Positions 1-28,285 of a stretch of 28,285 nucleotides of DNA are shown here, piece by piece. The notes beneath the pieces are model-generated. The model saw only the letters and a list, made by a program, of their open reading frames with translations, did no database searches and was not told where the DNA came from. Each line of letters opens with the position of its first letter. Within the stretch, counting starts at the first letter, position 1. Made by a program: the position numbers and the translations under genes. This stretch comes from Methanobacteriota archaeon. Its GTDB lineage: Archaea > Halobacteriota > Methanosarcinia > Methanosarcinales > Methanogasteraceae. The stretch is from NCBI GenBank assembly GCA_034658995.1, contig JAYEGG010000347.1, positions 1 through 28,285 of the forward strand. Reading direction: 5' to 3'.

Positions 1-262
1 CATCTATGTTTCCATCCTCAACACTCTGCACCTTCAGGACGTCCGGATTATGGATGAGATTAAACTGCCCGCTGTTCAGACCGTTAACCTCTGTCACATC
101 TATTGTGACCTCGAACGTATCTTCTGACACGTATTCGGGTGCGGTGATGGTGACATTGGCGTCTGCGTCAGGGTCGATCTCAGCCTCATCGCCTGCTGCC
201 GTGCATGTCATGAGCAGGGTTGCGAGTACGATTAATACTATCTTCTTTGCGATATAATTTAT
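1..262 (-). CDS. Secreted cohesin-domain protein, 5' part only (runs off the left edge)
   Basis: Manual minus-strand translation: INYIAKKIVLIVLATLLMTCTAAG-DEAEIDPDADANVTITAPEYVSEDTFEVTIDVTEVNGLNSGQFNLIHNPDVLKVQSVEDGNID. This is a signal peptide followed by a cohesin-like beta pattern (F-x-V-T-I-D-V..L-x-S-G-Q-F-x-L..P-x-V-L-x-V..G). Start uncertain: ATA at 262 after a GAGGT RBS, or GTG at 295. Confidence 0.8.
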   Translation of the reverse strand, partial: MNYIAKKIVLIVLATLLMTCTAAGDEAEIDPDADANVTITAPEYVSEDTFEVTIDVTEVNGLNSGQFNLIHNPDVLKVQSVEDGNID

Positions 263-315
263 TTTGATTACCTCATTAACATAATCTTCATACACACATC
301 CAAACCTTCGTGATT

Positions 316-1266
316 TCACACCGACCCAGCCCCCCAGAGCATCATAATCACAGCGAAATCGCTCACTGCAATTGACAAAAACAACGCAATCGCCACCCTT
401 AGCCCAAGTTTCGAGCCAAAGAATGCGACGTTGTACGGTATCAGCGTGTGGAAGATCTCGAAGAGATTGTATATGAACATCCCGACGATGAGCCCCATGA
501 ATGCATCCGTCAAACCGAGTCCGTTCACGATTAGCTGTTGTGCCATTGAGAAGGCGACAATGATGTTGAACGCGCCTGTGATTGCGATTGGCATCACTTC
601 AGGCTGCAATGGGAAGACCGCTGCTACCGGGCGGAGCAATTGATTTACGTAATCCATCAGATCGCTGTTCACAAGAATGTAGAGCAGAAACACCACTGGA
701 ACAAGGATCTTAAATACTGTTACAGCCATCCCGAGGCTCTCATGGAATGCATCCTTTATTCCCACTCTGAAATTCGTCTTTTCAACGGGGTGTTCGTACC
801 CGGAATCCTTGAAATTCCGGGGGAGTCGTATCATGCTGTAGCCGATACCGATAGTCGTCTGCACGATGCCGATTAATAGCCATACCACAAGGAAATAGAG
901 TCCGTTTCTCACTCCAAAGAGTCCGATTGCGATCGGTCCTGTGAAGAAGAAGACATACCATATCATCACAGGCAGTCCTCCTGCAAGTATCGCGGTTATG
1001 ACCTGCCGGTCACCGCCGAGCATGCCGTTTTTGTAGAATCCGGATAGTGTCGGGAGCGAGGATGTGATGTTGACTGCACACATCAGAAAGTAGAACGAGC
1101 AGCACTTCGGAAGCCTGCACACCTTTGTGAGCGGATCAAAGACGAACCCGAGTCTCAGCACCCACTGCCATCGTGTGGCAGCAGATGCGAGGAATAGCCC
1201 GATGTATGCGAGAAGTGCCACCCAGAATGTGAAGATGGCTCCGTCAACGATTGTTCCCGAATCCAT
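316..1266 (-). CDS. Multi-pass membrane protein, Gate/nucleoside-recognition domain family
   Basis: 316 aa with many hydrophobic segments in two similar halves; GGTGA RBS; overlaps the end of the upstream K-like gene. Family call is by overall resemblance only. Confidence 0.6.
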   Translation of the reverse strand: MDSGTIVDGAIFTFWVALLAYIGLFLASAATRWQWVLRLGFVFDPLTKVCRLPKCCSFYFLMCAVNITSSLPTLSGFYKNGMLGGDRQVITAILAGGLPVMIWYVFFFTGPIAIGLFGVRNGLYFLVVWLLIGIVQTTIGIGYSMIRLPRNFKDSGYEHPVEKTNFRVGIKDAFHESLGMAVTVFKILVPVVFLLYILVNSDLMDYVNQLLRPVAAVFPLQPEVMPIAITGAFNIIVAFSMAQQLIVNGLGLTDAFMGLIVGMFIYNLFEIFHTLIPYNVAFFGSKLGLRVAIALFLSIAVSDFAVIMMLWGAGSV

Positions 1267-6924: not shown

Positions 6925-6940
6925 TTTTATCAACTCCTAC

Positions 6941-9671: not shown

Positions 9672-9702
9672 TTAATTAAGACTCCTATGATATATATACA
9701 TA

Positions 9703-9941: not shown

Positions 9942-9951
9942 CATATATTTT

Positions 9952-10971
9952 TCATGTCACTCTAACCTCTCTTACTCCCTTTCGCAATAGGAGATACATG
10001 AGGAACGGGAGACCCATCACTACGGTCACCCCGCCCACCGGTGTGATAAGCGGTGCAATAACTGTTCTTGCCACCAGGTCCGATCCAAGCAGAAGTACCG
10101 CACCAACAAGTCCGGATACCGGAATTACAAACCTGTGATAATCTCCGATGACCCAACGACAGATATGCGGAGCCAGTAGCCCGATGAATCCGATCGTTCC
10201 TGTGAAGCAGACCGTGGTTGCGGTAAGAAGACTCGCAACAACCATTGCATAAGTTCTGGTACGCCTCTCGTCTGCACCGAAGAGTGGTGGCAGGATGATT
10301 GGCAGGAGTAGGAGAATCGCGCAGAGTACAATTGTGCCAGCCATGACTGCCAGTACGGGCCATGATGCCCTGTTGAGGTCGCCTATCATCCAGAAGACTG
10401 CTTCCTTCACAGCCTCTGCCGCACCAAAGTACATGAGGAGTCTCGTCATCACCGGACGGGAGAGGATCACTATTATAATACCTATTAATACAACCCGTTT
10501 AGGGGTTGCCCATCTGCGGCTTGAGATATAGAGGATGAACGATGTGGCGATCAGGGCAGAGACGAAGGCAGCACATAATATCAGATATTTCCCACCAACG
10601 ATGCCGGCACCTGCAAGAATTGCAAGTGAAGCACCAGATCCAGCGCTTGATGAGATTCCAAGTGTGTATGGCGAAGCAAGCGGATTTCTGAGTGCCCACT
10701 GCATGATACCACCTGCAATCCCGAGAGAGATGCCAGCCAGTATGGCAAGGACGATGCGGGGAAGCCGGAGATTCCAGACGCATACGTCTGCAAGCCAGCT
10801 CGACTCATATTGGTCCGGGAAGAACTTGTGCAGGATTGCAGAACAGGCATCATCCATAGTCATGTCCGCACCTCCAGTGGTTACGGAAATGCCCACCAGA
10901 GCAACGATTATGAGCAGGAGGAAGAGCACGAAGAATACTATCTTTCCCGTTGGCGGTTTTGACTGAGACAT
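9952..10971 (-). CDS. FecCD/BtuC-family ABC permease, divergent (shortened coupling loop)
   Basis: LRLPRI, LRNPLASPYTLGISS and GFIGLLAPH motifs; ATG 10971 follows GGAG. Confidence 0.88.
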   Translation of the reverse strand: MSQSKPPTGKIVFFVLFLLLIIVALVGISVTTGGADMTMDDACSAILHKFFPDQYESSWLADVCVWNLRLPRIVLAILAGISLGIAGGIMQWALRNPLASPYTLGISSSAGSGASLAILAGAGIVGGKYLILCAAFVSALIATSFILYISSRRWATPKRVVLIGIIIVILSRPVMTRLLMYFGAAEAVKEAVFWMIGDLNRASWPVLAVMAGTIVLCAILLLLPIILPPLFGADERRTRTYAMVVASLLTATTVCFTGTIGFIGLLAPHICRWVIGDYHRFVIPVSGLVGAVLLLGSDLVARTVIAPLITPVGGVTVVMGLPFLMYLLLRKGVREVRVT

Positions 10972-10987
10972 GATCACAATCTCCAAA

Positions 10988-11755
10988 TCACACCGGTTTC
11001 ACCGGAATGATGTACGGTCGCTCTCCGTCGCTCTTCACAAGCGCCTCCACGCCGTACGCACGCCTGATGTTCTCGGTAGTCAGAACCGATTCGGGATTGC
11101 CCGCGGCAAAGATCCTGCCTCCGTTCATCATCAGTATCCTGGTGGTGTACCTCGCGGCAAGGTTCAGGTCATGAATCGCCATCACAGCAGAGAGCTTCTT
11201 CCTGTGCACGATATTTGTCATGATCTCCATCACCTCAAGCTGATGTCTGATATCGAGGTTGCTTGTGGGCTCATCCAGCAGAAGAATGTCCGCTTCCTGT
11301 GCGAGCGCACGTGCGATCAGGACCTTCTGCTGCTGACCGCCGCTGATCTCGTTAAAGTCCCGCATCGCAAACTCCATGATCCCGAGGAGTTCCAGAATCT
11401 CCAGAACCTTGTCCACATCCTCCTCGCTACTCTTCCAACCGAGATGCGGGCGCCTTCCCATGAGAACCGTGTCAAAGACCGTCGCCGGAAAGACACGTGT
11501 TGTGGTCTGGGGCACATAACCCATCCGCTTTGCAATCTCCATTCTCGTCATATTGCTGATGTCGTTCTCATCCAGGAGTATTGTCCCTCCTCCCGGTGTC
11601 AGGATCCGGTCGATGCACCGGATCAGCGTGGATTTGCCGGCACCGTTCGGACCGACGATTCCGATTATCTCTGAGCTATCCAGATCCATGGATATGCCTT
11701 CGAGAACCAATGTGCTGTTGTAGCCGAATTCTACATTTTTTACTTTTAGTTTCAC
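10988..11755 (-). CDS. ABC ATPase, iron-chelate/cobalamin family (FepC/BtuD-like)
   Basis: Walker A GPNGAGKS, YVPQ Q-loop, ISGGQQQ signature, LLLDEPT Walker B and HDLNLA; GTGA overlap. Confidence 0.95.
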   Translation of the reverse strand: MKLKVKNVEFGYNSTLVLEGISMDLDSSEIIGIVGPNGAGKSTLIRCIDRILTPGGGTILLDENDISNMTRMEIAKRMGYVPQTTTRVFPATVFDTVLMGRRPHLGWKSSEEDVDKVLEILELLGIMEFAMRDFNEISGGQQQKVLIARALAQEADILLLDEPTSNLDIRHQLEVMEIMTNIVHRKKLSAVMAIHDLNLAARYTTRILMMNGGRIFAAGNPESVLTTENIRRAYGVEALVKSDGERPYIIPVKPV

Positions 11756-13122
11756 CAGTATTCCCTCCGCCGCCTCATTATCAGGTACAGGAAGAGTGGA
11801 GCTCCCATAAATGCCGTAACTGCCCCAACAGGTAGGATTATAGGAGCCATGATCCTTCTTGCCACAAGGTCTGCGCTGATGAGAATCACTGCACCCAAGA
11901 GACCTGAAACAGGGAGTACGTACCTGTTGTCGCCCCCGATTGCGAGCCGTGTCATGTGCGGGGCAACAAGCCCGATGAACCCGATTGTGCCTGTGAAACA
12001 GACGATTGTTGCAACCATCACTGTTGAGACAACCATCGTTAGGACCCGGGTGCGCTTCACATTCACACCAAGACTCTTCGCAGTCTCATCTCCTGCGCCC
12101 ATCACGTTTAAGTCCCAGGACTTTGCCATGAGGTATGGGGTGCAGAGAGCGATTGCAACCGACACGATCGTAACAACGGACCATGATGCCCTGTTGAGGT
12201 CGCCTACCATCCAGAAGACCGCTTCCTTGACAGCCTCTGCCTCGCCAAAGTACTGAAGAATCGTTGTCATCGCGCCGAAGAGGTACATCATCGCAATACC
12301 TGCGAGAATCATTGTTTCGGGTGTTGCTCCTTTGCGGCTCGAGAGCCCGAGGATGATGAACGCTACCAGCAGCGCGAATATGAAAGCGTTTCCGATGATA
12401 AGATATTTTCCGCCAACGATTCCTGCGCCTGCGAGAATTGCGAGTGACGCGCCGAAGCCTGCGCCTGACGAGATTCCGAGCGTGTACGGGCTTGCAAGCG
12501 GATTTCTGAGTATCGCCTGCATCACGCACCCCGCAAGTCCAAGACCGAATCCTGCCACGATTCCGAGGAAGATTCGGGGGAGCCTGAGGTTCCAGACGCA
12601 GACATCAGCAAGCCATGTTGCTTTGTGTAGGTGGAGCTCGCCGTTCACCTCTTTTATTTTAAAACCGTCAACTCTGTGACCCGGATCTATATCGCCGCTG
12701 ATTTTCACCTCCATCTTCTCTGTATCCCGGTAATCACGCGCGATTTTAACTTTATTGTCACCAACACCTTTAATGGTGATTGTACCGTCGTCAGATTTGC
12801 TGATCTCTGCGCTTTCCACCCAGCCGATGTCGTATTCAGCTATAAGGTGTTGTTTGAGTTTCTCACTATCGCTTCCTGGAACATTGTCCCATGTAAAGAG
12901 ATACGCTGACTCAAACGTATTCGGAAACGGTTTTCTGAGTATTGATGAATAAGCGTCCCAGACCGAGAGGTCTGCAGATCCGAGCGATGTGGAAACTCCT
13001 GTTATGCCAACGATCAGGACTATGAAGAGGAAGATGAAGAAGATCTTCCGTCCGATGAACTTCTTGTACTGCGTCCTGATCTCGTCCGCGGTTACTGTGG
13101 AACTCTGCTCTTCCATAGTCAT
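11752..13122 (-). CDS. FecCD/BtuC-family ABC permease with a ~96-aa soluble insert
   Basis: LRLPRI, LRNPLASPYTLG, intact DLNVMGAGDETAKSLGVN loop and GFIGLVAPH. Confidence 0.93.
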   Translation of the reverse strand: MTMEEQSSTVTADEIRTQYKKFIGRKIFFIFLFIVLIVGITGVSTSLGSADLSVWDAYSSILRKPFPNTFESAYLFTWDNVPGSDSEKLKQHLIAEYDIGWVESAEISKSDDGTITIKGVGDNKVKIARDYRDTEKMEVKISGDIDPGHRVDGFKIKEVNGELHLHKATWLADVCVWNLRLPRIFLGIVAGFGLGLAGCVMQAILRNPLASPYTLGISSGAGFGASLAILAGAGIVGGKYLIIGNAFIFALLVAFIILGLSSRKGATPETMILAGIAMMYLFGAMTTILQYFGEAEAVKEAVFWMVGDLNRASWSVVTIVSVAIALCTPYLMAKSWDLNVMGAGDETAKSLGVNVKRTRVLTMVVSTVMVATIVCFTGTIGFIGLVAPHMTRLAIGGDNRYVLPVSGLLGAVILISADLVARRIMAPIILPVGAVTAFMGAPLFLYLIMRRRREYW

Positions 13123-13128
13123 AACGCC

Positions 13129-14004: not shown

Positions 14005-14936
14005 TCTCGCACCTCGAGTGCATCCCGTGTCTTCCGTCTTATGCGCTGTGCAAGCCCGGACAGTTCTTCTTTTGTGAGGGGTGTTGGGGACACCCGGTCC
14101 CGGTTCTTGTAGATTTGCATCGCTGCTTCCCTGAAGACTCCAGCAATCTCAGAGTCCGGTTTGTGCTCTATTGCGGTTTTGCCGTAGATCTCGTTCTCCA
14201 TTATCATGGGGTCGCTTGGAATCGCTCCCACGACATTTGTTCCCACGCTATGTGCAAACTCCTCGACAAGCTCGCGATCATCGATTGCACCTCTCACGTT
14301 GTAGATGATGCCGCCCAGTGGGGAACCGCCCCGGTCTGCATGCCGCTGGATCCCCTTGCAGATGTTGTTTGCCGCGTAGACCGCCATATAGTCCGCGGAT
14401 GTCACGACGTAGACATCGTCGGCAAGACCGTTTCGAAGCGGCATCCCGAAGCCGCCGCATACAATGTCCCCGAGAACATCGTAGATGATCACATCGAGAC
14501 CGAGGTCAGAATAGATGCCGAGTCGTTTCAGGAGATCGACGACCACGATTACACCGCGTCCGGCACACCCGACGGCAGGTTCCGGACCTCCAGCCTCGAC
14601 ACAGAGGACTCCTTTAAATCCCTTGTATACAATCTCTTCAAGCTCAATCTGCTTGCCGCCCACAAGTTCGCCTATGCCAAGCTTGGAGACACCTTTCTCT
14701 CGTAGCACATCCAGGACGGTCGGGAGATCAGCATCGCCCCTGAGGTTCCGGGTGCAGTCCGCCTTAGGATCACAGCCGACAACCATCGTTTTAAGACCCA
14801 TATCCGCGTAAGCCGCCGCAATGTTGGACGATATCGTTGACTTGCCGATACCGCCTTTTCCGTAGAACGCGATCTGGCGCAGTCCATTTTCAGTATCCCG
14901 AGTTGATTCGGGAGTTTTCTTATCATTCATTCTCAT
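14001..14936 (-). CDS. nifH: NifH/CfbC/BchL-family ATP-dependent reductase (H1)
   Basis: [28 protein letters not shown] and DIVCGGF motifs; ATGA overlap. A nifH-like paralog. Confidence 0.93.
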
Positions 14937-16258: not shown

Positions 16259-16263
16259 TGCAA

Positions 16264-17760
16264 TCACCGGTCACCAACCGCTTTACTCCGGATCGTGCCA
16301 AACATCTCTGCGAGCGTTGCCCAGTGCGGAGTCATGCCTGTCCTGTGCGAATCGTATTCAAGCATGCTCAAGAGTGGATTTCTCTTCCCTGGCTTTTTGA
16401 GTGCTTCCCTCATCAGCTGAGCCAGTTCGATTACGCACTCAAAACCGACCCGCTGGTGATGGAGCATGAAACTCACCGGATCGAACGTCCGTAGCCCTTC
16501 CCTGTTGTACCCGTGTGCACTTGCCGATGTTGAAATGACCATATCGGTTCCTGTTCTCTTAATCGTCCGTATCTCCTCCTCAAACGTAGGATTTACGATG
16601 ATCTCCGGATCCGATCCGTACTTGGTCGCCCATCCGCGTGTAATATTCAGAACCTCGTCGAGCGCATCATCGTCCAGGATGGTCTCCAGACCCTCGGTCC
16701 GGTACGTGATCACGCTCGCCTTCATCCCCAGATCACGCAGTAGCAACAGTTCGATTCCGTGGAGACCACCCATGCCGGAACATGCGACCTTCTTACCTGA
16801 TAGATCGGGTATTATCCTTAAAAGCTTCTTCAGCGTATCTTTTTTGCGCTTCTCGATCACTTCATCTGCCTCGCCCTCCAGTCCGAACCTGGATGCAATC
16901 TCGCGAAAGATCCTTGCGCTACCGTCGATGCCGTACGGACAGAGCAGGTCTGAGTCCCCAGTCTCCTTATACCGGTCAAATGAAACGATCTCGTAGTAAT
17001 CGATCCCGAGCCGCTCCTTCATGCGTTTCGTCCAGACCATCGGATAATCGGTTATGGTCAGTTCCGCACAAACGAGGTCACGGAGATCCGAGACAGTTGT
17101 GTGATCGAAGCAGACCTTGTTTATCCCAATACCGATCTCCTCTAAAACCGAACTCATCTCGCCGGTCCTGACCCCTGAGCCATGTATCGGGAAGGTTACG
17201 ATGTTAACTGAGTTATCAGTTCTCTCGACAGCCTCCGCGTCCGTGTTATTGCAGAGCAACTGGTCAGCGATCGCATAGAGTGCGTCCTGGTACCCGACTG
17301 GTCTTGCCCTTTCAACGAAATCGCCTGTCGTGTAGACGAGGTCACAATCCACATCCGCCCCTGCCACCTCCACAACCGACTTGAAATCATCCCCGATGAG
17401 ATCGCTTGCACATGTCGTGATCACTATGATCAGATTTGGGTGATAACGTTCGAATGTTTCCTTGATACCACGTTTCAGTTTCTCCTCGCCCCCATACACA
17501 ATATCCAGGTCATTCATGTCGGTGCACGGGGTTTCATAAAATAGGGAATGCAGCTTGAACGGGTTGAGCTTCCGCTGATATGCGCACCCGATCGGTCCGT
17601 GGATCAGGGGGACCGCGTCCGTAATAGCACCCGCGACCAGAAGCGAACCCGAGATCTTTCCAGGAATCGTGGTCATCCCGTGCAGAGGGAAGGTGCTGTA
17701 TGCATTGACAAGCGGTTTTAAGAATCCAGTTCCGTTTTCATGATTTCTTTCTTCGATCAT
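16264..17760 (-). CDS. Nitrogenase component-1-like alpha/D-like subunit (D1)
   Basis: HGPIGC, TPCTDMNDLDIVYGGEEKL and TTCASDLIGDD motifs. Confidence 0.92.
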   Translation of the reverse strand: MIEERNHENGTGFLKPLVNAYSTFPLHGMTTIPGKISGSLLVAGAITDAVPLIHGPIGCAYQRKLNPFKLHSLFYETPCTDMNDLDIVYGGEEKLKRGIKETFERYHPNLIIVITTCASDLIGDDFKSVVEVAGADVDCDLVYTTGDFVERARPVGYQDALYAIADQLLCNNTDAEAVERTDNSVNIVTFPIHGSGVRTGEMSSVLEEIGIGINKVCFDHTTVSDLRDLVCAELTITDYPMVWTKRMKERLGIDYYEIVSFDRYKETGDSDLLCPYGIDGSARIFREIASRFGLEGEADEVIEKRKKDTLKKLLRIIPDLSGKKVACSGMGGLHGIELLLLRDLGMKASVITYRTEGLETILDDDALDEVLNITRGWATKYGSDPEIIVNPTFEEEIRTIKRTGTDMVISTSASAHGYNREGLRTFDPVSFMLHHQRVGFECVIELAQLMREALKKPGKRNPLLSMLEYDSHRTGMTPHWATLAEMFGTIRSKAVGDR

Positions 17761-17902: not shown

Positions 17903-18982
17903 TCACCAGTACTCCCTCCTCCGCTTTATTATCAGATACATAAAGAGGGGACCGCCCATGAACGCTGTTATCACGCCAACCGGGAGGGTGGCGGGAGCGA
18001 TAATCGTTCTCGCAACAGTATCCGCGCCAAGCAGAAGTGAGGCACCACAGAGACCCGATGCAGGGATTAAAAACCTGTTATCCCCTCCCATCACCATCCT
18101 GCAGAGGTGAGGTGCGACCAATCCGATGAACCCGATGGTTCCGACGAAACAGACGATCGCAGCGGTCAAGAGTGACGCTGTCATCAGGACAGAGACTCTG
18201 GTTCTCTCGACGTTGACGCCAAGGCTCTTTGCAGTCTCATCGCCTGCACCCATCACATTAAGATCCCACGACTTTCGCATAAGCAGCGGGATGCAACATG
18301 CAAGAACGATCGATGCGGGCAGGAGGTTGTCCCACGACGCCTTCCCAAGAGAGCCAATCGTCCAGAAGACCGCAGCCTTAACAGCTCCCGGATCTGCGAA
18401 ACATTCCACGAGAATCGTTGCGGCGTTAAAGATGTAGAGCATCGCAATACCCGCAAGAATCATCATCTCAGGAGTCGCCTGTCTGTAGCGTGCCAGCCCG
18501 AGAATGACTAATGTTGGAATCAGCGCGAAGAAGAACGCGTTTCCAATGATCAAATACTTCCCGGCGAGGATGCCGGCGCCAAGTGTAATTGCGAGAGCAG
18601 CGCCAAATCCGGCGCCCGCAGAGATTCCCAGGGTGAACGGGCTTGCAAGCGGATTTCTCAGGATTCCCTGCATCACGCATCCCGCAATCGCAAGCCCGGT
18701 GCCTGCAATGATTCCCATCAGGATACGCGGCATTCTTGCGACCCAAACGACCTTATATGCGATATGGTCTGTGTGGAAGTGATCCGGGAAGAACCGCTCG
18801 AGGATTGCGGAATACGATTCGGATATTGTGATATCCGCAGAGCCGACCGATGCAGCTATGCCAACAAGAACAACGATTAAGGCTATGAAGAGAAGGATGC
18901 AAGAGATCTTCCTCCCGACAAACCGATTGTACTCGTCTCGTACGCTCTCTGTTGTTATTGCCGCACCGGCACATGAACTCAT
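17903..18982 (-). CDS. FecCD/BtuC-family ABC permease
   Basis: RMPRI, LRNPLASPFTLG, DLNVMGAGDETAKSLGVN and GFIGLVAPH motifs. Confidence 0.94.
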   Translation of the reverse strand: MSSCAGAAITTESVRDEYNRFVGRKISCILLFIALIVVLVGIAASVGSADITISESYSAILERFFPDHFHTDHIAYKVVWVARMPRILMGIIAGTGLAIAGCVMQGILRNPLASPFTLGISAGAGFGAALAITLGAGILAGKYLIIGNAFFFALIPTLVILGLARYRQATPEMMILAGIAMLYIFNAATILVECFADPGAVKAAVFWTIGSLGKASWDNLLPASIVLACCIPLLMRKSWDLNVMGAGDETAKSLGVNVERTRVSVLMTASLLTAAIVCFVGTIGFIGLVAPHLCRMVMGGDNRFLIPASGLCGASLLLGADTVARTIIAPATLPVGVITAFMGGPLFMYLIIKRRREYW

Positions 18983-18997: not shown

Positions 18998-20338
18998 CTA
19001 CGGTGCAGGATAGACATACACTCCAGTGTAGTCCAAACCGTGAAACTTCTTGAGCCACTCGCCATGCACCTCTATCGGGTCAATCTCGCTGAACAGATCC
19101 GGCTGGAGGCATTTCGCCATGTAAAGGACGTAGATACTCGAATGAATCCCGCCCGCAGCATTGCAGATCATGTAGACATCACCATTCGTAACTGCGGTCG
19201 TGCTGTCCCAGTCAGTGCTGCTCATGAACATATCCCGCACTGTTTCCATTGAACTTGCGTCCTCGACACCGTAGCCGCACTCAACGAAACCCGCGTAACC
19301 CGGATATACGTCCATCACGAATGCTTCGGGATCGTTTCCGATGATCGCCTCTGTGTCCACCTGCTGGTAGCCCGTAATACTTCCGAATGCGTTGATGCCA
19401 CCGCTTCGCAGGATGCGGTTGTTGCCACTCGTTCCCGCACATGCAACGTAACATGGAGGCGCCTCATCTGAAGCTGCTCTGATGCCTGCTCTCTCTCGCA
19501 CTATGTCCTCTTCCGGCAGAAACGTGCCTGGTGGACATGGGCAGTAAACCCCGTACGCAGTCTTTGGCTTATCATCCTCCGGAATCTCTGATACGATCTC
19601 GTCTATTTTGGCGTACAACTCCTCCTCGAACGTGATAAGCTCAACAGATACCTCCTGCTTATTCACCAGGAGTCCCAGAACCCCGATCTCTGCAGGATAC
19701 TTATCCGGTTCATCCAGATCGGTCATGAGCATCGGTATGTCAGCATCAGCCAGTTGCTCCTCGTACTCAGGATAGTATGAGCGGAAATACGTGGAAGCAA
19801 TGACAACGTCAGGATCCAGACTTATCACCTTCTCAATGTCCATGGAACTTGAGTACTGCCCGATCTCCTCCGTATCCTTGATGAGTTCTGCGATCTCACC
19901 CACCTTCTTTGTGAATCCGTCAACGCCAACGACCGTATCCCCCATTCCAAAGATGCAGAGCGCCTCGCAGGCATAGCAGCTAGCTGTTACCACACGTTCG
20001 ATCGGCATCGCGAGTGTCAGCGGCTCCTCGACGACATCCGGTGGTGTGCCGATATACTGGAATATGGTGATCTCCTTTTCCTTCCCGAGAATGGTAAGTT
20101 CGATCTGCGTTACATCCTGCATGTTGATCTTGCCGTCGTACTTCGCGTCCGATAGTTCTGTCTGGTCACGGTACTCGAGGATGATCAGTTCGGTGTAGGT
20201 GACGTCCTGCATGTTGATTGTGTCATCCTCGTTTGCGTTGCCGAAGACGCCGAGCGTGTAGTCTGATGCTGCTGCCGGCAGTGCAAGCAGAAGCATCATA
20301 GTTACTCCAAATATTATTGTGTTCGTTTTCATGTTCAT
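18998..20338 (-). CDS. Dockerin-fused class III (BtuF/FecB-like) substrate-binding protein SBP1, Cys-rich
   Basis: Signal peptide ending PAAA-S, duplicated dockerin loops, MPIERVV, EKVISLDPDVVI and AVTNGDVY. Start could be 20332, 20338 or 20362. Confidence 0.9.
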   Translation of the reverse strand: MNMKTNTIIFGVTMMLLLALPAAASDYTLGVFGNANEDDTINMQDVTYTELIILEYRDQTELSDAKYDGKINMQDVTQIELTILGKEKEITIFQYIGTPPDVVEEPLTLAMPIERVVTASCYACEALCIFGMGDTVVGVDGFTKKVGEIAELIKDTEEIGQYSSSMDIEKVISLDPDVVIASTYFRSYYPEYEEQLADADIPMLMTDLDEPDKYPAEIGVLGLLVNKQEVSVELITFEEELYAKIDEIVSEIPEDDKPKTAYGVYCPCPPGTFLPEEDIVRERAGIRAASDEAPPCYVACAGTSGNNRILRSGGINAFGSITGYQQVDTEAIIGNDPEAFVMDVYPGYAGFVECGYGVEDASSMETVRDMFMSSTDWDSTTAVTNGDVYMICNAAGGIHSSIYVLYMAKCLQPDLFSEIDPIEVHGEWLKKFHGLDYTGVYVYPAP

Positions 20339-20361
20339 TATCTCCCTTTTATTCATCTTCA

Positions 20362-21615
20362 TCAACTCTCCACAAATGGTGGATACACAAAGACGCCTTT
20401 CTCACCCAGGTCGTAGTCGATGCCGCAGAAATCATCGATATAGGTCTGATGCATCGCCTCCGGATCCAGGTCATCAAATAAGGTGGGGTGTAACCACTTT
20501 GCCATATAGGCAACTCCAATAGAATTGCTTGATCTGTCACAGATGTCGGGACATATCAGGTACACCCTACCATTCTGCACTGCCGAAATACCGTCAAAGC
20601 CGGTGCGGCTCATGATATTGTCTCTCACCGCTTTCATCTCAGTGGAGTCGTCTTCATCGTAGCCATTGGAAACTTTGCTACCTGATACTACCTTTACAAT
20701 AACGTCAGGATTCTGATCGATTATCCATTCAGGGTCAACTCCTGCTATTGTCCCTTCTCCGGGTAAATCCGCACCAATATTTATCCCACCAGCCATCTCG
20801 CACATCGGATGAGTCCCTGAACGGCTGGTGCGAGCTTTGTAGTCGCTGCAGCACTCAATGTACACGCGTGGCTTCTCTTCCTCCGATATCCCTCCTACCA
20901 CCTCTTCTATGGGATCCGTGCAATCGTGGTAAAAGTTGATGAGTTCCTCTGCCTCGTCCGTCTTCCCGATGATGTATCCCTGCTCTCGCAGCTGTACATC
21001 CCTTGTCAAGAGTTTGCAGTTCGAAAAACCACCAACCGCTATACCCAGTATTTCAGGCGTATCTCCGAAGTACTTTGGTTTCAGTGCCGAGGTGTATGCG
21101 AAGACGAGGTCAGGATCAAGACTGAGTACCACTTCCCAGTCCGGATGGAAGGATGATCCGACCGTCGGCAGGAGAGCGATATCCGGGAAGAATACGGTAT
21201 CCTTTGCGAGATACGTTGTCACGCCAACTATCAGCTCCTTTCCTCCGAGGCTCCTCCCAACCTCCGCAGAATCGGTGCTGAGCATGACGATTCTCTCGAT
21301 TGGTTTCTCGACCGTTACTGTTCTTTCGGCGTTGTCGATGAACGTCATCTCCAACTCTCTCCCGAGTATGATCAGTTCGATCTGCGTTACGTCCTGCATG
21401 TTGATCTTGCCGTCGTACTTGCCGTCAGCAAGCTCTGTCTGGTCACGGTACTCGAGGATGATCAGTTCGGTGTAGGTCACATCCTGCATGTTTATCGTGT
21501 CGTCCTCGTTCGCGTTTCCGAAGACGCCGAGCGTGTAGTCGGATGCTGCTGCAGAGAGCGCGAGCAAAAGCAGCATAGTTATTCCAAGTACTATTGTGTT
21601 TGCTTTCATATTCAC
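20362..21615 (-). CDS. Dockerin-fused class III substrate-binding protein SBP2
   Basis: Signal peptide, dockerin, KPIERIV, EVVLSLDPDLV, EWIIDQNPDVIV and AVQNGRVY; ATG 21609 is the likely start. Confidence 0.92.
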   Translation of the reverse strand: MNMKANTIVLGITMLLLLALSAAASDYTLGVFGNANEDDTINMQDVTYTELIILEYRDQTELADGKYDGKINMQDVTQIELIILGRELEMTFIDNAERTVTVEKPIERIVMLSTDSAEVGRSLGGKELIVGVTTYLAKDTVFFPDIALLPTVGSSFHPDWEVVLSLDPDLVFAYTSALKPKYFGDTPEILGIAVGGFSNCKLLTRDVQLREQGYIIGKTDEAEELINFYHDCTDPIEEVVGGISEEEKPRVYIECCSDYKARTSRSGTHPMCEMAGGINIGADLPGEGTIAGVDPEWIIDQNPDVIVKVVSGSKVSNGYDEDDSTEMKAVRDNIMSRTGFDGISAVQNGRVYLICPDICDRSSNSIGVAYMAKWLHPTLFDDLDPEAMHQTYIDDFCGIDYDLGEKGVFVYPPFVES

Positions 21616-21637
21616 TACCTACTTTTTATATATCTCA

Positions 21638-22882
21638 TCAATTCTCCACAAATGGCGGGTATATGAAGACACCACGTTCCTTCACGTCGAAATCCAACCC
21701 CTGAAAGTCCACATCACGCTGGTGTACCTCGGTTGGATCCAGGTCACTGAACCGCTCAGGATGGACGACCTTCATGATGTATGGGATGCCATTAATATAA
21801 CTGTAACCACATGCTATACTGCAGGATATGACGTAAACACGACCGTTCTCCACTGCTTTGACGTTAGACAGCTCAGGACGGTTCATGATCGCATCTCGTG
21901 CAGCCACCATGTCCTGGGAGTCATCAAGCTCATAGCCGCTCTTTCCGGAGGACATCATCTTGATGATGATGTCCGGATTCTGTTCCACCACCCATTCAGG
22001 GTCTACCACCGCACAACGATCCGGTATCGTATCATACGCAACGTTTTTTCCACCGGCGATCTCGCAGATCATGTTGGGGTACGAGGTCACACCACATGCC
22101 TTGTAGTCTTTCATCGCTTCTATGTACACCCTCGGTTTATCCTCTTCAGGAATCTCCGCGGTCATTTCGGTTAGATCGGCGACATTATCATGGAGAACAC
22201 CGGTATATGTGTAAGCATCCTCCACCGCACCAAATATGTATCCCAGTTTCGCAATTTCTTCTTCATTCAGGTCTTCCGGTGTTGGTTTTACAGGCATCGC
22301 AAATGGAATGCCTGCTGCTTCACATGTCTCTGCAAATTTGTCACCCCAGCCACATGTAGGCGAACCTGCTATCACAAGATCGGGATTGAGTGCAAACATC
22401 TTCTCAAAGTCCGGAGGATAGCCACCGATGCTCATGCTTTCATCCAGTTCCGGGAAGAACACTTTGCGATCGATCGCATACTTGCATATTCCAACCAGCG
22501 TATCTCCTGCGTTTATCGCCCGCATCAGGGCATAAGTCGTCGAGGGTCCGATGATGACTCGCTCAAGTGGTTTATTGATCGTCACCGCCTCTTCGCGAAG
22601 GTCGGTAAATGTGAGTTCCTTCTCTTTTCCGAGAATGACAAGCTCGATCTGCGTTACATCCTGCATGTTGATCTTGCCGTCGTACTTTGCGTCCGAGAGT
22701 TCTGTCTTGTCACGGTACTCGAGGATGATCAGCTCGGTGTACGTCACATCCTGCATGTTTATCGTGTCGTCCTCGTTCGCGTTGCCGAAGACGCCGAGCG
22801 TGTAGTCTGATGCTGCTGCCGGCAGTGCAAGCAGAAGCATCATAGTTACTCCAAGTAGTATTGTGTTCGTTTTCATGTTCAT
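21638..22882 (-). CDS. Dockerin-fused class III substrate-binding protein SBP3
   Basis: Signal peptide, dockerin, EKMFALNPDLVI, EWVVEQNPDIII and AVENGRVY; AGGAGG RBS. Confidence 0.92.
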   Translation of the reverse strand: MNMKTNTILLGVTMMLLLALPAAASDYTLGVFGNANEDDTINMQDVTYTELIILEYRDKTELSDAKYDGKINMQDVTQIELVILGKEKELTFTDLREEAVTINKPLERVIIGPSTTYALMRAINAGDTLVGICKYAIDRKVFFPELDESMSIGGYPPDFEKMFALNPDLVIAGSPTCGWGDKFAETCEAAGIPFAMPVKPTPEDLNEEEIAKLGYIFGAVEDAYTYTGVLHDNVADLTEMTAEIPEEDKPRVYIEAMKDYKACGVTSYPNMICEIAGGKNVAYDTIPDRCAVVDPEWVVEQNPDIIIKMMSSGKSGYELDDSQDMVAARDAIMNRPELSNVKAVENGRVYVISCSIACGYSYINGIPYIMKVVHPERFSDLDPTEVHQRDVDFQGLDFDVKERGVFIYPPFVEN

Positions 22883-23000
22883 TCCCTCCTTGTGGTTGTA
22901 TTCTGTGTGCGCTACACTGATTCTCCGCAGACAAGAGAATTGCAGGTCGCGTATTTTTCTGGTTTATCCGACCAGTTTCACAATCGGTATTGTGTTACTC

Positions 23001-24038
23001 CTATTTAACTTGATGCCCGGTGTGGTCGGTGGCAGGGGGATAACAGGTATCAGGAGCAAGATATTCTCCAAATTCTTCGGAGCAATGTTCCCTTAGGTAA
23101 TTCCTCGCCGCATGACAGAGATGACATTCATCATAATATGCGGGGTCAGGTTCAAAACCACGTTCCACAGCAAGCTCTTTCAGCCCCAGGGCTCCTTTTT
23201 CATGGAGTGCGCTGATGATCGGATTCGGGTCGCTGAAATAGCGCGTAAATATCTCGGACATACTCTCTTTGTAAAGATTTCCCAGGGACACCCCAAAGCA
23301 GCCATCGACAAATCCCTGTGGGTCGATTAAAATACTGTCCGGGCATTTTGGGCGTAGTACGCCGATATTAAACTCCCAGCACTTGCGATCCAACCGTTTG
23401 TTGACGCGAAGTTCCTCGGGCATGATGAAATTAGTCCTGCCGTGGGCTCCAGCCACCGTGGAAAAAGCATAGTAGCCCGAATCGTAGATCTTCTGCACGA
23501 TATCCTGGGTTTGCCTGTTAAACTTACAGTCATAACTCTGGTAGCCCAGGTACGTAGCTATCGCATAAGTAGAAAAACTCATTTCGCCCATAGATCGCCC
23601 AACACCGGGAGTTTCCGTTTTCAGTATGTTAAGTACATTTTCCAGGGGAATAGTTTTCTGGTGGAAACTATCTGCACTTACCCCGATGCTGTTGACACCC
23701 AGTTCACGCAGGCGGTCAAGTTTTTGTCGGACCACTTCAACGTCATCAGCCCATGCTCCGTTTGTGGAAATGCTGAAATAGTCGATACCATGTTTCTTGC
23801 ATCGCTTGATACACTCCACAATAACATCATAATGGTAAAATGGCTCTCCACCTGCAAAATGGACTGTACTGAGGTTATGCTGACCGGATATACTTTCCAG
23901 TGCATCATCGATCAAATCCGGATCGATCGGTGCATGGTTGGGGTTGCGTTGAAAATAAAAACAGTGATCACAACTGCAATTGCAGTCCATGGTGACCAGT
24001 ATCACAACAGTCTTCAGGTTACTTAGTGATCCCTTCAT
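23001..24038 (-). CDS. Radical SAM protein with a C-terminal Cys-rich (SPASM/twitch-like) region
   Basis: CNCSCDHC (CxxxCxxC), FAGGEPF, STNG, then C..C..IDPQGFVDGC..ECHLC. ATG 24038 overlaps the upstream stop (ATGA). Confidence 0.9.
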   Translation of the reverse strand: MKGSLSNLKTVVILVTMDCNCSCDHCFYFQRNPNHAPIDPDLIDDALESISGQHNLSTVHFAGGEPFYHYDVIVECIKRCKKHGIDYFSISTNGAWADDVEVVRQKLDRLRELGVNSIGVSADSFHQKTIPLENVLNILKTETPGVGRSMGEMSFSTYAIATYLGYQSYDCKFNRQTQDIVQKIYDSGYYAFSTVAGAHGRTNFIMPEELRVNKRLDRKCWEFNIGVLRPKCPDSILIDPQGFVDGCFGVSLGNLYKESMSEIFTRYFSDPNPIISALHEKGALGLKELAVERGFEPDPAYYDECHLCHAARNYLREHCSEEFGEYLAPDTCYPPATDHTGHQVK

Positions 24039-24859
24039 TTTTCCCACCACATAACCGCACTCTTAGTCGTGCTCTCTCTACAATAAATGCCATCCACAGC
24101 ATTCTTTACGATATAATCCTTGATCATTTTCTTAATCCTCGGCGTAATTTCCGTATAAAGATCAAACAGGTACTCATAATAATCTATAGCGTCATTCACC
24201 GATTTCTCAAAGGTATACGCCGAATCTATGACGTTTACGTTCGCATAGATTCCCATGGTGTACAGGATATTATAGATGTAGATGTAGTCTATCCCAAAAT
24301 TGTACTCCGCATCCATGATCCTGGACCACATCTCGCGATCAAGATCATCTGTAAGTCCTGCGTGAAGAATCACACAACAATAGCGTCTTGATACATCATG
24401 CACTCGCGTCAATTGCTTGCCGATATCATCAAACTGCCACAGGACATTTGACGTAATAACAAGGTCGAAGCTCTCCCTGATTTCGGAATCATCAACCTCC
24501 TGCCATGTCTTATTCACTGTCTCGATATTCGACAGCCCCGCTTCAACCGCACTCTCTTCCAGAACGTTGAGCATTCCCTTTGAGGGGTCCAGTGCAACTA
24601 CTCTGTCAACCAGTTTTGCGAGGGGTATAACGAGCGTTCCAGGACCGCAACCGATATCAAGAACCCTGAAATCAGGTTTTATGATCTCTTTTAGTACGTG
24701 TACCATCTGCTCGCCGTACTTAAAACCCTCCCTCTTTATCGTGTCGCTATATTCCGCTGCCCCTCGATCCCAGAGATCTACTCCGACGTCTTTACGATAT
24801 TTCGCCAGGACAGAGTCCTTTCGTGCATCTATCCAGAGTTGTTCCCAGTTTATTTCCAT
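24035..24859 (-). CDS. Class I SAM-dependent methyltransferase (same subfamily as 13129-14004)
   Basis: VLDIGCGPG, ALDPSKGM, NKTWQEV and FDLVITSN motifs. Confidence 0.92.
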   Translation of the reverse strand: MEINWEQLWIDARKDSVLAKYRKDVGVDLWDRGAAEYSDTIKREGFKYGEQMVHVLKEIIKPDFRVLDIGCGPGTLVIPLAKLVDRVVALDPSKGMLNVLEESAVEAGLSNIETVNKTWQEVDDSEIRESFDLVITSNVLWQFDDIGKQLTRVHDVSRRYCCVILHAGLTDDLDREMWSRIMDAEYNFGIDYIYIYNILYTMGIYANVNVIDSAYTFEKSVNDAIDYYEYLFDLYTEITPRIKKMIKDYIVKNAVDGIYCRESTTKSAVMWWEK

Positions 24860-24909
24860 TTAATATGACCTATTGTTCCTTTGTTTTGTATGTGTTAGCT
24901 GAAATGAAG

Positions 24910-24982
24910 AACCACGAGATTTCACGAGATTAACACAAGACACTGGTAGTTTTTCTTGTGGAAATCCGTGCAATCTCATAGT
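24910..24982. repeat. REP-like imperfect palindrome with ~10-nt periodic arms
   Basis: aaccacgagat-ttcacgagat-taacacaaga ... tcttgtggaaatccgtgcaatctc. Confidence 0.5.
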
Positions 24983-25004
24983 CATCTAAACACGTACCTT
25001 GTTT

Positions 25005-26285
25005 TCAGTCTTCTATTGGCGGATACACAAACACGCCATGCTCATTTAAGTCGTAATCTATCCCCAGAAATTCTGTCAGGTATTCCTGGTGCATTGCCTG
25101 TGGGTCAAGGTCACAAAAGAGCTCTGGATGGAACGTCTTCGCGAAGTATGCGATGCCCAGTGGGTATGGCTGTCCGTAGCTGAAGGTGGTACTGAGCATC
25201 TGCACCTTTTTGTTTTTCACGGCGTTAACCTCCGCTAACGAGGGATGATTCAAAACTTCCTCTCTCTGTGCAATTATTTCAGCCACATCATCCTCAGCAT
25301 AACACTCCCACATACCAGGGTAATAATACCTAACAATAACATCCGGATTCTGCATAATCACCCACTCAAGGTCCACATAATACTCGCCAGACGGCAGCTC
25401 CAGATCCTCTGCCACAAATAGTCCACCGGCTGTTTCGACAGAATAGTGTTGTGTAGAACCTCCCAGAGGGGTGTACCATTCGTTGGTACTTAACTCGCTA
25501 AACGTCCCGTAAAGCACCCGCGGTTTTTCGTCATCCGAGAGTTTGTCTGTTCCAGCTTTGACGATGTCAATAATTCCTTCATACCACTCAATAAACTCCT
25601 TTGCCTCACCTCTACTATCAACAATGTATCCAAGTTTTGTTATCTCTTCGCTCAGGTGATCTGGTGTCGGATAACCAAATTCGAGACGGGGTATTGGTAG
25701 GTCCGAGTCAGCAGACTCAAGTGTATCCAGAACCGCATCATGGTAAGATCCAGTACTTAAAATAACGAGATCTGGGCATAGATTCAACACCACCTCATAA
25801 TCAGGTATATACGGTCCAATGCACGGTAGATCGCAGAGTTCACCGAAGTATTCCTCAGGAGCATTTGTGATATAATCAACCACACCAACCAGCTTATCCG
25901 CCGCATTAAGCGTACGCAGTGGGTCGACGACATAACAGTTGACGGCAATAATACGTTTTACCGGCTTCTCCACAGTAACAATTCTATCCGTGGAATCAAG
26001 AACCGTGATCTCCTTCTCCTTCCCGAGAATGACAAGCTCGATCTGCGTTACGTCCTGCATGTTGATCTTACTGTCATACTTTGCGTCCGATAGTTCTGTC
26101 TGGTCACGGTACTCGAGGATGATCAGTTCGGTGTAGGTCACATCCTGCATGTTTATCGTGTCGTCCTCGTTTGCGTTACCGAAGACGCCAAGCGTGAAGT
26201 CGGATGCTGCTGCCGGGAGTGAGAGCAAGAGCAAGAGCAGCAAACTTATGGTTATCCTAATAACTATACTTGTCTTCATATTCAT
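25005..26285 (-). CDS. Dockerin-fused class III substrate-binding protein SBP4
   Basis: Signal peptide, dockerin, KPVKRII, EWVIMQNPDVIV and AVKNKKV. Confidence 0.92.
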   Translation of the reverse strand: MNMKTSIVIRITISLLLLLLLSLPAAASDFTLGVFGNANEDDTINMQDVTYTELIILEYRDQTELSDAKYDSKINMQDVTQIELVILGKEKEITVLDSTDRIVTVEKPVKRIIAVNCYVVDPLRTLNAADKLVGVVDYITNAPEEYFGELCDLPCIGPYIPDYEVVLNLCPDLVILSTGSYHDAVLDTLESADSDLPIPRLEFGYPTPDHLSEEITKLGYIVDSRGEAKEFIEWYEGIIDIVKAGTDKLSDDEKPRVLYGTFSELSTNEWYTPLGGSTQHYSVETAGGLFVAEDLELPSGEYYVDLEWVIMQNPDVIVRYYYPGMWECYAEDDVAEIIAQREEVLNHPSLAEVNAVKNKKVQMLSTTFSYGQPYPLGIAYFAKTFHPELFCDLDPQAMHQEYLTEFLGIDYDLNEHGVFVYPPIED

Positions 26286-26304
26286 TACCGTCCCTATAAT
26301 TCAG

Positions 26305-27594
26305 TCAGTTCTCCTCAGTCCACGGCGTGGGATACGCATACACACCCTGATACTCTACACCAAGGAACGTCTCAAACCACTCTTTGTGAATTGCAGCAGG
26401 GTCCACATCCTCAAAGAGCGTGGGGTGGAGATACTTAGCCAGGTAGGAGAGCCAGACAGACTGGTGTGTCGACGAGGCATCGGAACTGATAAAGTACACC
26501 CTATCATCCCTGACCGCATCGATATGATCAAAGCCGAAATAATTCATTATGTACTCAGTTCTTACCTCGTCAACCGGACCGGTATCCGTTATATCATATC
26601 CAAGAGCTTCGCCAGTAGCGCTACTCCATGCCATTGCAATGATTACCTCGGGGTTTCGCACGATGATCTCTTCAGCATCCACGCCTACGTATCCATCCAC
26701 ATCAGCGAAGATGTTGGTGCCACCACAGAGTTCGATGTTATTGTGGTGGGCTGTACCGCCGCCTGCGACATGCGTGGGATCGCCGTAATAACTAACACCC
26801 AGACAATAGTACGCTTTAGTCCTCTCTTCGGGCTCCAGGTCCTTCACTCGCTCTTTTATTATGTCGGTGTGATCTTTCTCAAAACTGATAAGCTCTTCAG
26901 CCCGCTCTCTATTCCCCAGCAACCATCCGAGGTTCCGGATCTCGTAAGGGTGCTTCTCAGGCTGGCTGAAATCCGCATGAACCAGCGGAATTCCGGCAGC
27001 GTTCAATTGTTCATCAGTCTCAGGAGAATATGTGTACGAGTAAGTAAGTACGATATCAGGATTCAGTTCCAGGACTTTTTCCATATCAAAGCCGCCGTGG
27101 GTGATATCATGCCCTGTTCCAACCGAAGGCGTGTCTCCTAATAAAGTTCTGGTCTCTCCTCTCATCTTTGACCCCTCGATGACTCCAACGATCTTATCCG
27201 CAGCTTCGAATGCGCAAACTGTTTCAGCAGCGAAATTGCTCAAAACCACCATCCGTTCTACCGGCATAGGCACCGTTACTGGTTTTTCAGTGAGGTCCGG
27301 AGGATATCCCATATACTGAAGCAGCGTTAACTCCTTCTCCTTCCCGAGTATGACAAGCTCTATCTGCGTTACATCCTGCATGTTAATCTTGCCGTCGTAC
27401 TTTGCGTCCGATAGTTCTGTCTGGTCACGGTACTCGAGGATTATCAGCTCGGTGTACGTCACATCCTGCATGTTTATCGTGTCGTCCTCGTTTGCGTTAC
27501 CGAAGACGCCAAGCGTGAAGTCGGATGCTGCTGCCGGCAGTGCAAAGAGCAAGAGAACCGCGACAATTCCAGGCAATATCATGCTTATTCTCAT
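26305..27594 (-). CDS. Dockerin-fused class III substrate-binding protein SBP5
   Basis: Signal peptide, dockerin, MPVERMV, EKVLELNPDIVL and AVRDDRVY. Confidence 0.92.
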   Translation of the reverse strand: MRISMILPGIVAVLLLFALPAAASDFTLGVFGNANEDDTINMQDVTYTELIILEYRDQTELSDAKYDGKINMQDVTQIELVILGKEKELTLLQYMGYPPDLTEKPVTVPMPVERMVVLSNFAAETVCAFEAADKIVGVIEGSKMRGETRTLLGDTPSVGTGHDITHGGFDMEKVLELNPDIVLTYSYTYSPETDEQLNAAGIPLVHADFSQPEKHPYEIRNLGWLLGNRERAEELISFEKDHTDIIKERVKDLEPEERTKAYYCLGVSYYGDPTHVAGGGTAHHNNIELCGGTNIFADVDGYVGVDAEEIIVRNPEVIIAMAWSSATGEALGYDITDTGPVDEVRTEYIMNYFGFDHIDAVRDDRVYFISSDASSTHQSVWLSYLAKYLHPTLFEDVDPAAIHKEWFETFLGVEYQGVYAYPTPWTEEN

Positions 27595-27616: not shown

Positions 27617-28285
27617 TCAACTTGCAAGCGGGGGGTGCACAAACGCACCCTCCTCTGTTACGTCGAAGTCTATGCCACAGAATCGATCCACGTATTCCTG
27701 CTGGATCACCTGTGGATCCATATCAGCAAATACTTCCGGATGGAACCACTTTGCCAGGTACACAAGACCCGCAGGCATCGCAGGAGTGTACAGGATATCA
27801 TTGTTGATCACGTGTACACGACCGTTCTTTACAGCTCCGGTATTGTCAAATCCCGGAACATCCAATATCTTATCGTATTCTATAACGATCTCACTATCAT
27901 CATCCGCACCCCAGCCACCCTTGCTGACACCTCCGGCTATCACTTCCGGATTCTGCTCCAGAACCCATTCCACACTCACCTTCGGAAATGTGTCAACTCC
28001 GAGATCCGCACCGATGTTACAGCCCCCTACTCTCGCACACTGCTGACCCATTCCGGTTCCTTCAGTGTATGTCTTCATATCGGTGTCTGTTATGCCGTAG
28101 GTGCTGATTAAGAATACTCTGGGTTTGTCATCCTCTGAGATCTGCGAGACCCGGTCGTCTATCTCGTCAACGTATCCGTCGTACCAGTCGAGATATTCGT
28201 CTGCGGCATCTCGATCTCCGAGCAGGTATCCAAGCTTATTCATCTCTTCTCTGAGCGTCTCGGGTTTGTAGAGGTCAAGACGAAC
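27617..28285 (-). CDS. Class III substrate-binding protein SBP6, C-terminal part (5' end outside the window)
   Basis: Frame open to the edge (VRLDLYKPETLREEMNKLGY..); EWVLEQNPEVI, AVKNGRVH and GAFVHPP. Whether it has a dockerin cannot be seen. Confidence 0.9.
   Translation of the reverse strand, partial: VRLDLYKPETLREEMNKLGYLLGDRDAADEYLDWYDGYVDEIDDRVSQISEDDKPRVFLISTYGITDTDMKTYTEGTGMGQQCARVGGCNIGADLGVDTFPKVSVEWVLEQNPEVIAGGVSKGGWGADDDSEIVIEYDKILDVPGFDNTGAVKNGRVHVINNDILYTPAMPAGLVYLAKWFHPEVFADMDPQVIQQEYVDRFCGIDFDVTEEGAFVHPPLAS

Follow-up and report, generated by a model that had tools for sequence, protein, structure and literature searches.

The window analysed here is the entire contig JAYEGG010000347.1 (C347; 28,285 nucleotides) of an archaeal assembly of 2.1 Mb that is 75% complete. 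Its minus strand holds every long open reading frame (ORF), six of which encode substrate-binding proteins (SBPs). Judged from their sequences, these SBPs are probably secreted receptors of FecCD-type (type II) ATP-binding cassette (ABC) importers that are held non-covalently at the cell surface through pairing of a dockerin with cohesins. Their nearest named relative, at 66% identity, is encoded by 'ANME-1 cluster archaeon AG-394-G21', a member of the anaerobic methanotrophic archaea (ANME). DNA of the window is nearly complete in one brine metagenome and partially present in mud-volcano, cold-seep and marine-sediment metagenomes. The six SBP genes are the following:

18998..20365, minus strand: SBP1; signal peptide at about 20267-20332 (the start may lie further upstream, up to 20365), dockerin cassette 20063-20266, Peripla_BP_2 domain containing a Cys-rich insert
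20362..21615, minus strand: SBP2; signal peptide 21544-21615, dockerin cassette 21340-21543, Peripla_BP_2 domain
21638..22882, minus strand: SBP3; signal peptide 22811-22882, dockerin cassette 22607-22810 (the module modelled below), Peripla_BP_2 domain
25005..26285, minus strand: SBP4; signal peptide 26205-26285, dockerin cassette 26001-26204, Peripla_BP_2 domain
26305..27594, minus strand: SBP5; signal peptide 27526-27594, dockerin cassette 27322-27525, Peripla_BP_2 domain
27617..28285, minus strand: SBP6; C-terminal 222 amino acids only, the N-terminus being cut off by the contig end

Directly after the signal peptide, each complete SBP carries a two-loop module of 63-68 amino acids, which about 10 residues link to the Peripla_BP_2 domain. 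The alignment resolves it into a tandem pair of segments in which an EF-hand-like loop of 12 residues leads into a helix, and the same I-N-M-Q-D recurs in both loop-helix segments of all five window copies, as the original prediction had claimed. In canonical numbering, loop 1 reads N-A-N-E-D-D-T-I-N-M-Q-D, with Asn replacing the usual Asp at position 1, and loop 2 reads D-A-K-Y-D-G-K-I-N-M-Q-D. The atypical D-x-K-Y-D previously noticed in loop 2 is real and places Lys at the canonical Ca-ligand position 3; the five window copies read D-A/G-K-Y-D-G/S, with Y or H across the genome, and some relatives have Phe or Tyr at position 3. At the Ca-ligand positions 1, 3, 5, 9 and 12, loop 1 offers N, N, D, N and D, which is acceptable, and loop 2 D, K, D, N and D.

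The identity of the module was established by homology to a recognised dockerin. BLASTP aligned it at 62% identity (E 5e-21) with the N-terminal dockerin of an SBP_bac_5 protein encoded on contig C450 of the same genome, and this dockerin passes Pfam Dockerin_1 at 36.4 bits. When 24 SBP modules were compared with 10 Pfam-positive dockerins of the same genome using hhalign, a probability of 97.5% (E 6e-12) was obtained. The nine best matches of a profile search of the PDB were all dockerins (E 0.011-0.46); a single-sequence search reached E 0.1-0.5 at best, and an NCBIfam scan of SBP3, with its first 100 residues or whole, gave no dockerin match. An AlphaFold2 (AF2) model, based on an alignment of SBP modules and 25 canonical dockerins, had a mean predicted local distance difference test (pLDDT) score of 90.9 and a predicted template modelling score (pTM) of 0.79, with helices at residues 19-29 and 49-59. 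Foldseek placed it closest to dockerins, which made up all of the top 37 PDB matches, mostly with TM-scores of 0.6-0.72 and a root-mean-square deviation (rmsd) of 1.5-2.5 Å. Homology and the AF2/Foldseek comparison thus agree that the N-terminal repeat has a dockerin fold, the point on which the original prediction had staked itself. By these two lines, the module is a divergent type-I-like dockerin that falls short of the Pfam threshold and of full Ca-ligand conservation.

The cassette is carried by 19 full-length and 4 cut ORFs of the genome and by more than 100 homolog clusters in public data, in which the second helix has lineage-specific variants, so that it is not a chance pattern. All 21 PF01497 matches of the genome are either cassette-bearing or cut by contig ends. 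Within the family, 14 of the 24 genomes searched, from four genera, contain the cassette, in up to 56 copies per genome; a search of 16 genomes from five sister families yielded none. The highest number belongs to a relative, G016 (2.9 Mb, 87% complete), whose 56 cassette matches include runs of up to nine on one contig (C213). The I-N-M-Q-D symmetry itself, which the original prediction had connected with dual-mode binding, is lineage-specific, relatives reading I-D-M-R-D / I-N-P-L-D.

Among the 19 full-length paralogs, the cassettes are 90.9% identical (minimum 82.5%) and the binding domains 33.3% (range 22-48%). Synonymous codons differ at 31% of the conserved cassette residues, which indicates purifying selection on the cassette and led us to reject pure gene conversion as the source of its identity. 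On the other hand, codon identity is higher in the cassettes (0.69) than in the cores (0.41), which makes a degree of recombinational homogenisation likely for the 5' cassette. A near-invariant cassette on diverged binding domains fits interchangeable receptors for one type of partner.

Dockerins of the I-N-M-Q-D type are found in this genome on SBPs only (21 Peripla_BP_2 and two SBP_bac_5 proteins). The other type, ending in S-L-D-A-L-M-I-L, is found on papain-like protease, PLD, FG-GAP, PQQ, CARDB and DUF3160 proteins and on scaffoldins. The SBP_bac_5 paralogs of the genome (G000) provide a natural exchange of modules:

C450, 2210-3997: SBP_bac_5 protein with an N-terminal I-N-M-Q-D dockerin
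C74, 1-1770: SBP_bac_5 protein with a C-terminal I-N-M-Q-D dockerin
C166, 644-2497: SBP_bac_5 protein with a linker and a transmembrane (TM) tail, no dockerin

Exactly where the C74 protein has its dockerin, the C166 protein has an acidic, Thr-rich linker and the TM tail. This swap is the best indirect support for the view that the dockerin may replace an anchor.

The assignment of the SBPs to a transporter class rests on their binding domains and on the genes beside them. All six window SBPs score above the Pfam cut-off for Peripla_BP_2 (PF01497; 38.8-98.8 bits against 27.5), their nearest solved structures are iron/siderophore-type SBPs, and FecCD permease and ABC ATPase genes lie alongside, which is the composition of a class III SBP/FecCD importer. 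Transcription proceeds from the six SBPs, with an S-adenosylmethionine (SAM) methyltransferase and a radical SAM gene between them, to a FecCD permease. Nitrogenase-like D/K/H genes with methyltransferases follow, then a FecCD permease, the ABC ATPase and a second FecCD permease. More nitrogenase-like genes, a Gate-domain protein and a cohesin protein, of which only the initial 106 codons fit before the contig end, close the series. The features concerned are the following:

17903..18982, minus strand: FecCD-type permease that immediately follows SBP1 and is the probable translocator partner
11752-13122, minus strand: FecCD permease with an extracytoplasmic insert of about 96 amino acids, part of the block 9952..13122
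10988-11755, minus strand: ABC ATPase, part of the same block
9952-10986, minus strand: second FecCD permease, part of the same block
2..319, minus strand: 5' part of a cohesin gene with a GTG start, candidate docking partner
23001-24050, minus strand: radical SAM gene inside the SBP array, cytoplasmic, no part of the docking device
24035-24859, minus strand: SAM methyltransferase gene inside the SBP array, cytoplasmic, no part of the docking device

Possible partners for the dockerins are plentiful. The genome contains 35 cohesin matches and about 30 canonical dockerins. Contig C450 encodes a protein with a dockerin and five cohesins, other multi-cohesin proteins are present, and single-cohesin proteins end in PGF-type (C226, C374) or other C-terminal hydrophobic tails. 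Genes for a multi-cohesin scaffoldin, an anchored cohesin and dockerin-bearing cargo, the parts of a cellulosome-like system, are therefore found together in one genome. Cohesin and cassette-SBP genes share four contigs, compared with 0.41 expected (length-weighted permutation, P ~3e-4). Over its first 85 residues, the cohesin at the start of the window shares 64-65% identity with a 279-residue protein of a related contig (L051). In that protein, a signal peptide is followed by a single cohesin, a Pro/Thr/Ala linker and, at the C-terminus, a hydrophobic tail matching no known sorting-signal model. Both genes lie downstream of transporter genes, in L051 the FecCD-ATPase pair of an SBP cluster. 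The commoner immediate neighbour of cassette-SBP genes is a multi-cohesin adaptor, and the window-start cohesin is only one candidate partner among several.

Among relatives, L053 (genome G005) has three genes in a row that encode a cohesin whose tail resembles PGF-CTERM (18.2 bits in Pfam, just under the cut-off of 18.8), an adaptor made of a signal peptide, an S-L-D-A-L-M-I-L-type dockerin and three cohesins, and a cassette-SBP. L054, from a different genus (G016), has a gene for a dockerin protein with six cohesins ahead of a cassette-SBP gene. In L021, from ANME-1 AG-394-G21, a three-cohesin protein and a PGF-CTERM cohesin protein (26.1 bits, NCBIfam cut-off 24.5) are followed by at least seven SBP genes. 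Cohesin and cassette-SBP genes also adjoin in G006:C89, G006:C30, G002:C259, G003:C220 and G007:C246. In the genome of the window itself, an anchor gene is followed by a scaffoldin gene on C374 and C226, and a scaffoldin gene by an SBP gene on C450 and C51. A tree of cohesin domains did not separate the SBP-adjacent cohesins from the others at useful resolution. Taken in order, these gene strings suggest an arrangement in three tiers. The original prediction had envisaged interchangeable receptors plugging into one cohesin type; the conservation of cassettes over cores (91% versus 33%) and the cohesins encoded nearby, membrane-anchored ones among them, speak for this part, and no evidence was found for its additional proposal that scaffolds are shared among consortium partners.

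That the dockerin instead loads the SBPs onto an extracellular matrix or inter-cell scaffolds, where they would act as scavenger, store or shared good in the manner of hemophores rather than as permease-bound receptors, is unlikely, although it accounts for several features. Scaffoldins with three to six cohesins and no membrane anchor of their own adjoin SBP genes, SBP copies far exceed permeases in some genomes (56 cassettes in G016; here 21 SBPs and about 12 FecCD genes), and roles for cohesin-dockerin pairs in contact between ANME and sulfate-reducing bacteria have been discussed in the literature. However, the SBP genes form operons with genes for FecCD permeases and an ABC ATPase. Moreover, since the scaffoldins bear a dockerin of their own and anchored cohesins are encoded beside them, assembly is better placed on the surface of the producer.

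All five complete SBPs begin with a basic n-region, a hydrophobic core of 12-15 residues and L-P/S-A-A-A followed by S-D; the signal peptides ending in A-A-A|S-D and lacking a lipobox Cys that had been described for them were recovered in every case on the minus strand. This short, Sec-type signal peptide is probably cut after A-A-A, as indicated by the (-3,-1) A-x-A pattern. The window copies lack a lipobox Cys at the A-A-A|S-D site or close to it, which sets them apart from lipoprotein SBPs, and the occasional h-region Cys residues of relatives are not conserved. In each SBP, Kyte-Doolittle windows above 1.6 were found in the N-terminal segment only, the C-termini are hydrophilic, and no PGF-CTERM was detected. 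The absence of a lipid anchor noted originally hence extends to a second TM segment and to PGF-CTERM. From the SBP sequences we could also reject a lipobox, a C-terminal anchor and a signal of class III (pilin-like) type. The PGF-CTERM-anchored SBP family TIGR04281 was likewise rejected: it is the best NCBIfam match of the binding domain, at 72.8 bits far below the cut-off of 325, and the C-terminal PGF motif, TM segment and basic tail are missing.

There is a small chance that the N-terminal hydrophobic segment is not removed and serves as a signal anchor, in which case the dockerin would cluster the SBPs or recruit other proteins. The hydrophobic stretch with its A-rich tail covers about 17 residues and reaches a maximum Kyte-Doolittle average over 19 residues of 2.0-2.45, which would be compatible with such a role. 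A short h-region, a Pro and a small-x-small motif ahead of the mature start are, however, the established pattern of signal peptidase I substrates, and precisely this is found: the h-region is short (12-15 residues) and is followed by Pro and a conserved small-x-small before an invariant S-D-Y/F-T-L in more than 100 homologs. A degenerate dockerin that no longer binds cohesin and works as a Ca-binding, stabilising or oligomerisation domain, the SBPs being confined by the ANME-1 envelope, would agree with the sub-threshold Pfam score, with Lys, Phe or Tyr at position 3 of loop 2 and with Asn at position 1 of loop 1, but is very improbable in view of the extreme purifying selection on the helix faces that touch cohesin in solved complexes, the close relationship of the module to a canonical dockerin and the recurrence of cohesin-gene adjacency across several genera.

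A number of results nevertheless weigh against surface tethering through a dockerin-cohesin pair. The second Ca site may be defective or altered, because Lys, or Phe or Tyr in relatives, occupies ligand position 3 of loop 2. Pfam Dockerin_1 gave no hmmscan match on whole SBPs, and in a six-frame search (PF00404) scores of 13.6-16 bits over model positions 5-52/57 stayed below the cut-off of 22.9; of the hidden Markov model check that had been proposed, the threshold was therefore missed and the homology to a Pfam-positive dockerin stood. AF2 found no confident fold in SBP modules alone (pLDDT 47.9), and since it failed with this shallow alignment, the fold result leans partly on the canonical rows. 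No cohesin gene occurs within 10 kb in the two long loci L047/48 and L049 of relatives. The phyletic match between the window-type cohesin and the cassette is imperfect as well: G010 has the cohesin and no cassette, and G016 has 56 cassettes and no close ortholog of the cohesin. As this co-occurrence is not clean, we do not name the window-type cohesin as the partner. For archaeosortase A, the 75%-complete genome yielded only a sub-threshold fragment (G000:C307:1719-1988; model positions 2-84, 43 bits, cut-off 75), despite several cohesin proteins ending in PGF-type tails; the missing full-length gene may be an assembly gap. Finally, no RNA runs containing this DNA were found; metatranscriptome contigs of relatives lie mainly on the conserved 5' cassettes, although contigs in RNA libraries cannot prove transcription.

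If surface tethering is nonetheless correct, the following course of events can be envisaged. The SBPs would be exported by Sec and cleaved after A-A-A, upon which the dockerin would fold, with at least loop 1 binding Ca2+. The cassette would then dock, as gene adjacency suggests, to an adaptor scaffoldin, to an anchored single-cohesin protein or to both by way of their cohesins, and the scaffoldin would plug its own dockerin into a PGF-CTERM- or TM-anchored cohesin. The tethered SBPs would finally hand their ligands to FecCD permeases, as is known for the family. Three tiers may be distinguished in such an arrangement: a cohesin protein fixed by PGF-CTERM or a C-terminal hydrophobic tail, an adaptor scaffoldin with a dockerin of the other subtype and three to six cohesins, and many interchangeable dockerin-SBPs. 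A single unvarying docking cassette and a small number of permeases would in this way serve different binding pockets. Since only about 10 residues separate the dockerin from the SBP, it is the cohesin proteins, with their long Pro/Thr linkers, that have to provide any reach.

More tentatively, the whole may amount to a three-tier, cellulosome-like 'receptor rack', in which anchored cohesins would hold adaptors of three to six cohesins, these would show up to dozens of SBPs by way of a dockerin class reserved for transport receptors, and a few type II importers would be fed by this diversified set of receptors. This fuller picture is more doubtful than tethering itself. Its substrates may be tetrapyrrole-like cofactors, which could fit the neighbouring nitrogenase-like reductases, CobN chelatases, methyltransferases and radical SAM enzymes.

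The core finding is already known as a genomic observation, since dockerin-bearing TroA-type SBPs in ANME have been reported: SBPs, the TroA type included, are common among dockerin-bearing proteins in ANME, and the ANME-1 genomes there include PF01497/TroA_f proteins encoded next to cohesins (Chadwick et al. 2022, PLoS Biol, PMC9012536; the latter in S4 Data). Many cohesin and dockerin domains had been counted in ANME-1 and ANME-2a before (Timmers et al. 2017). The SBPs of Chadwick et al. (2022) are of the same lineage and architecture, and no experimental follow-up of ANME dockerin-SBPs was found in the literature. What sequence analysis adds here is the homology proof for a sub-threshold cassette, a dockerin subtype confined to SBPs, its presence on every SBP of the class in this genome, none of which has another anchor, the contrast in conservation between cassette and core, the exchange of anchor and dockerin, and strings of anchor, adaptor and SBP genes in relatives.

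The closest structural parallel is offered by the type I pairs of clostridial cellulosomes (PDB 1OHZ, 2CCL, 2VN5), with which the module shares two duplicated loop-helix segments and a predicted fold that superposes at an rmsd of 1.5-2 Å. The proposed hierarchical organisation into anchor, scaffoldin and cargo is likewise similar. In contrast to cellulosomes, the cargo consists of transport receptors instead of glycoside hydrolases, the dockerin stands at the mature N-terminus, Asn opens loop 1 and Lys takes up ligand position 3 of loop 2, scores fall below the Pfam cut-off, and anchoring is by PGF-CTERM or a C-terminal TM segment rather than by SLH domains or sortase. Haloarchaeal PGF-CTERM-anchored SBPs (TIGR04281) belong to the same SBP class and also to a monoderm archaeon, but in the present genome the PGF-CTERM-type tail is found on some cohesin proteins and not on the SBPs, so that the anchor appears to be outsourced.

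In Sulfolobus, SBPs with class III, pilin-like signal peptides are assembled into a bindosome by the Bas system. There too, archaeal SBPs are kept at the surface in a dedicated supramolecular assembly and not by lipid, but the mechanism is unrelated, as the SBPs described here have no class III signal and cohesin-dockerin pairing is proposed. Gram-positive bacteria use lipoprotein SBPs and permease-fused binding domains (OpuA, GlnPQ), which similarly concentrate the receptor beside the translocator without an outer membrane. Their link is a covalent one, by lipid or polypeptide, whereas the link proposed here would be non-covalent and exchangeable. Were tethering to be confirmed, it would constitute a third way for a cell lacking an outer membrane to keep its ABC receptors, besides lipid or TM anchors and permease fusion. 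The link would be modular, with one constant plug on many binding pockets, and would give a concrete function to part of the cohesin/dockerin excess in ANME, which has so far mostly been discussed as cell adhesion.

Several further observations concern the transporter genes and their surroundings. The FecCD permease encoded at 11752-13122 contains a soluble insert of about 96 amino acids between TM1 and TM2 (12619-12906) and is 456 amino acids long, its two window paralogs being 344-359; L051 has a FecCD protein of 452 amino acids in the same position, compared by length alone. As the insert is extracytoplasmic by topology, it could be a docking site for the receptors. A Pfam scan of the whole protein showed FecCD only, and an ESM Atlas query with the insert returned nothing.

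Cassette-SBP arrays are repeatedly interleaved with nitrogenase-like D/K/H, SAM methyltransferase and radical SAM genes (window 1244-17760; L049, L051, L047), and the L051 array additionally contains two CobN-type chelatases and a ChlD/VWA protein. These interleaved genes hint at tetrapyrrole-like cofactors or their precursors as candidate ligands of the SBPs.

The spacer between SBP4 and the methyltransferase gene (24860-25004, core 24917-24937) contains a dispersed repeat. Its 21-mer TGTGTTAATCTCGTGAAATCT is present in 78 exact copies spread over 74 of the genome's contigs, frequently at their ends, with three copies at 118-bp spacing on C183, and the repeat accounts for a depth peak in metatranscriptome contigs. 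Rfam gave no match in the window. Lastly, a Gate (nucleoside-recognition) membrane protein recurs at the ends of SBP arrays (window 316-1266; L047 19424-20395; L053 2716-3714). Its gene adjoins a TrmO-like gene in two relatives, and in the window its stop codon overlaps the GTG start of the cohesin gene (GTGA).

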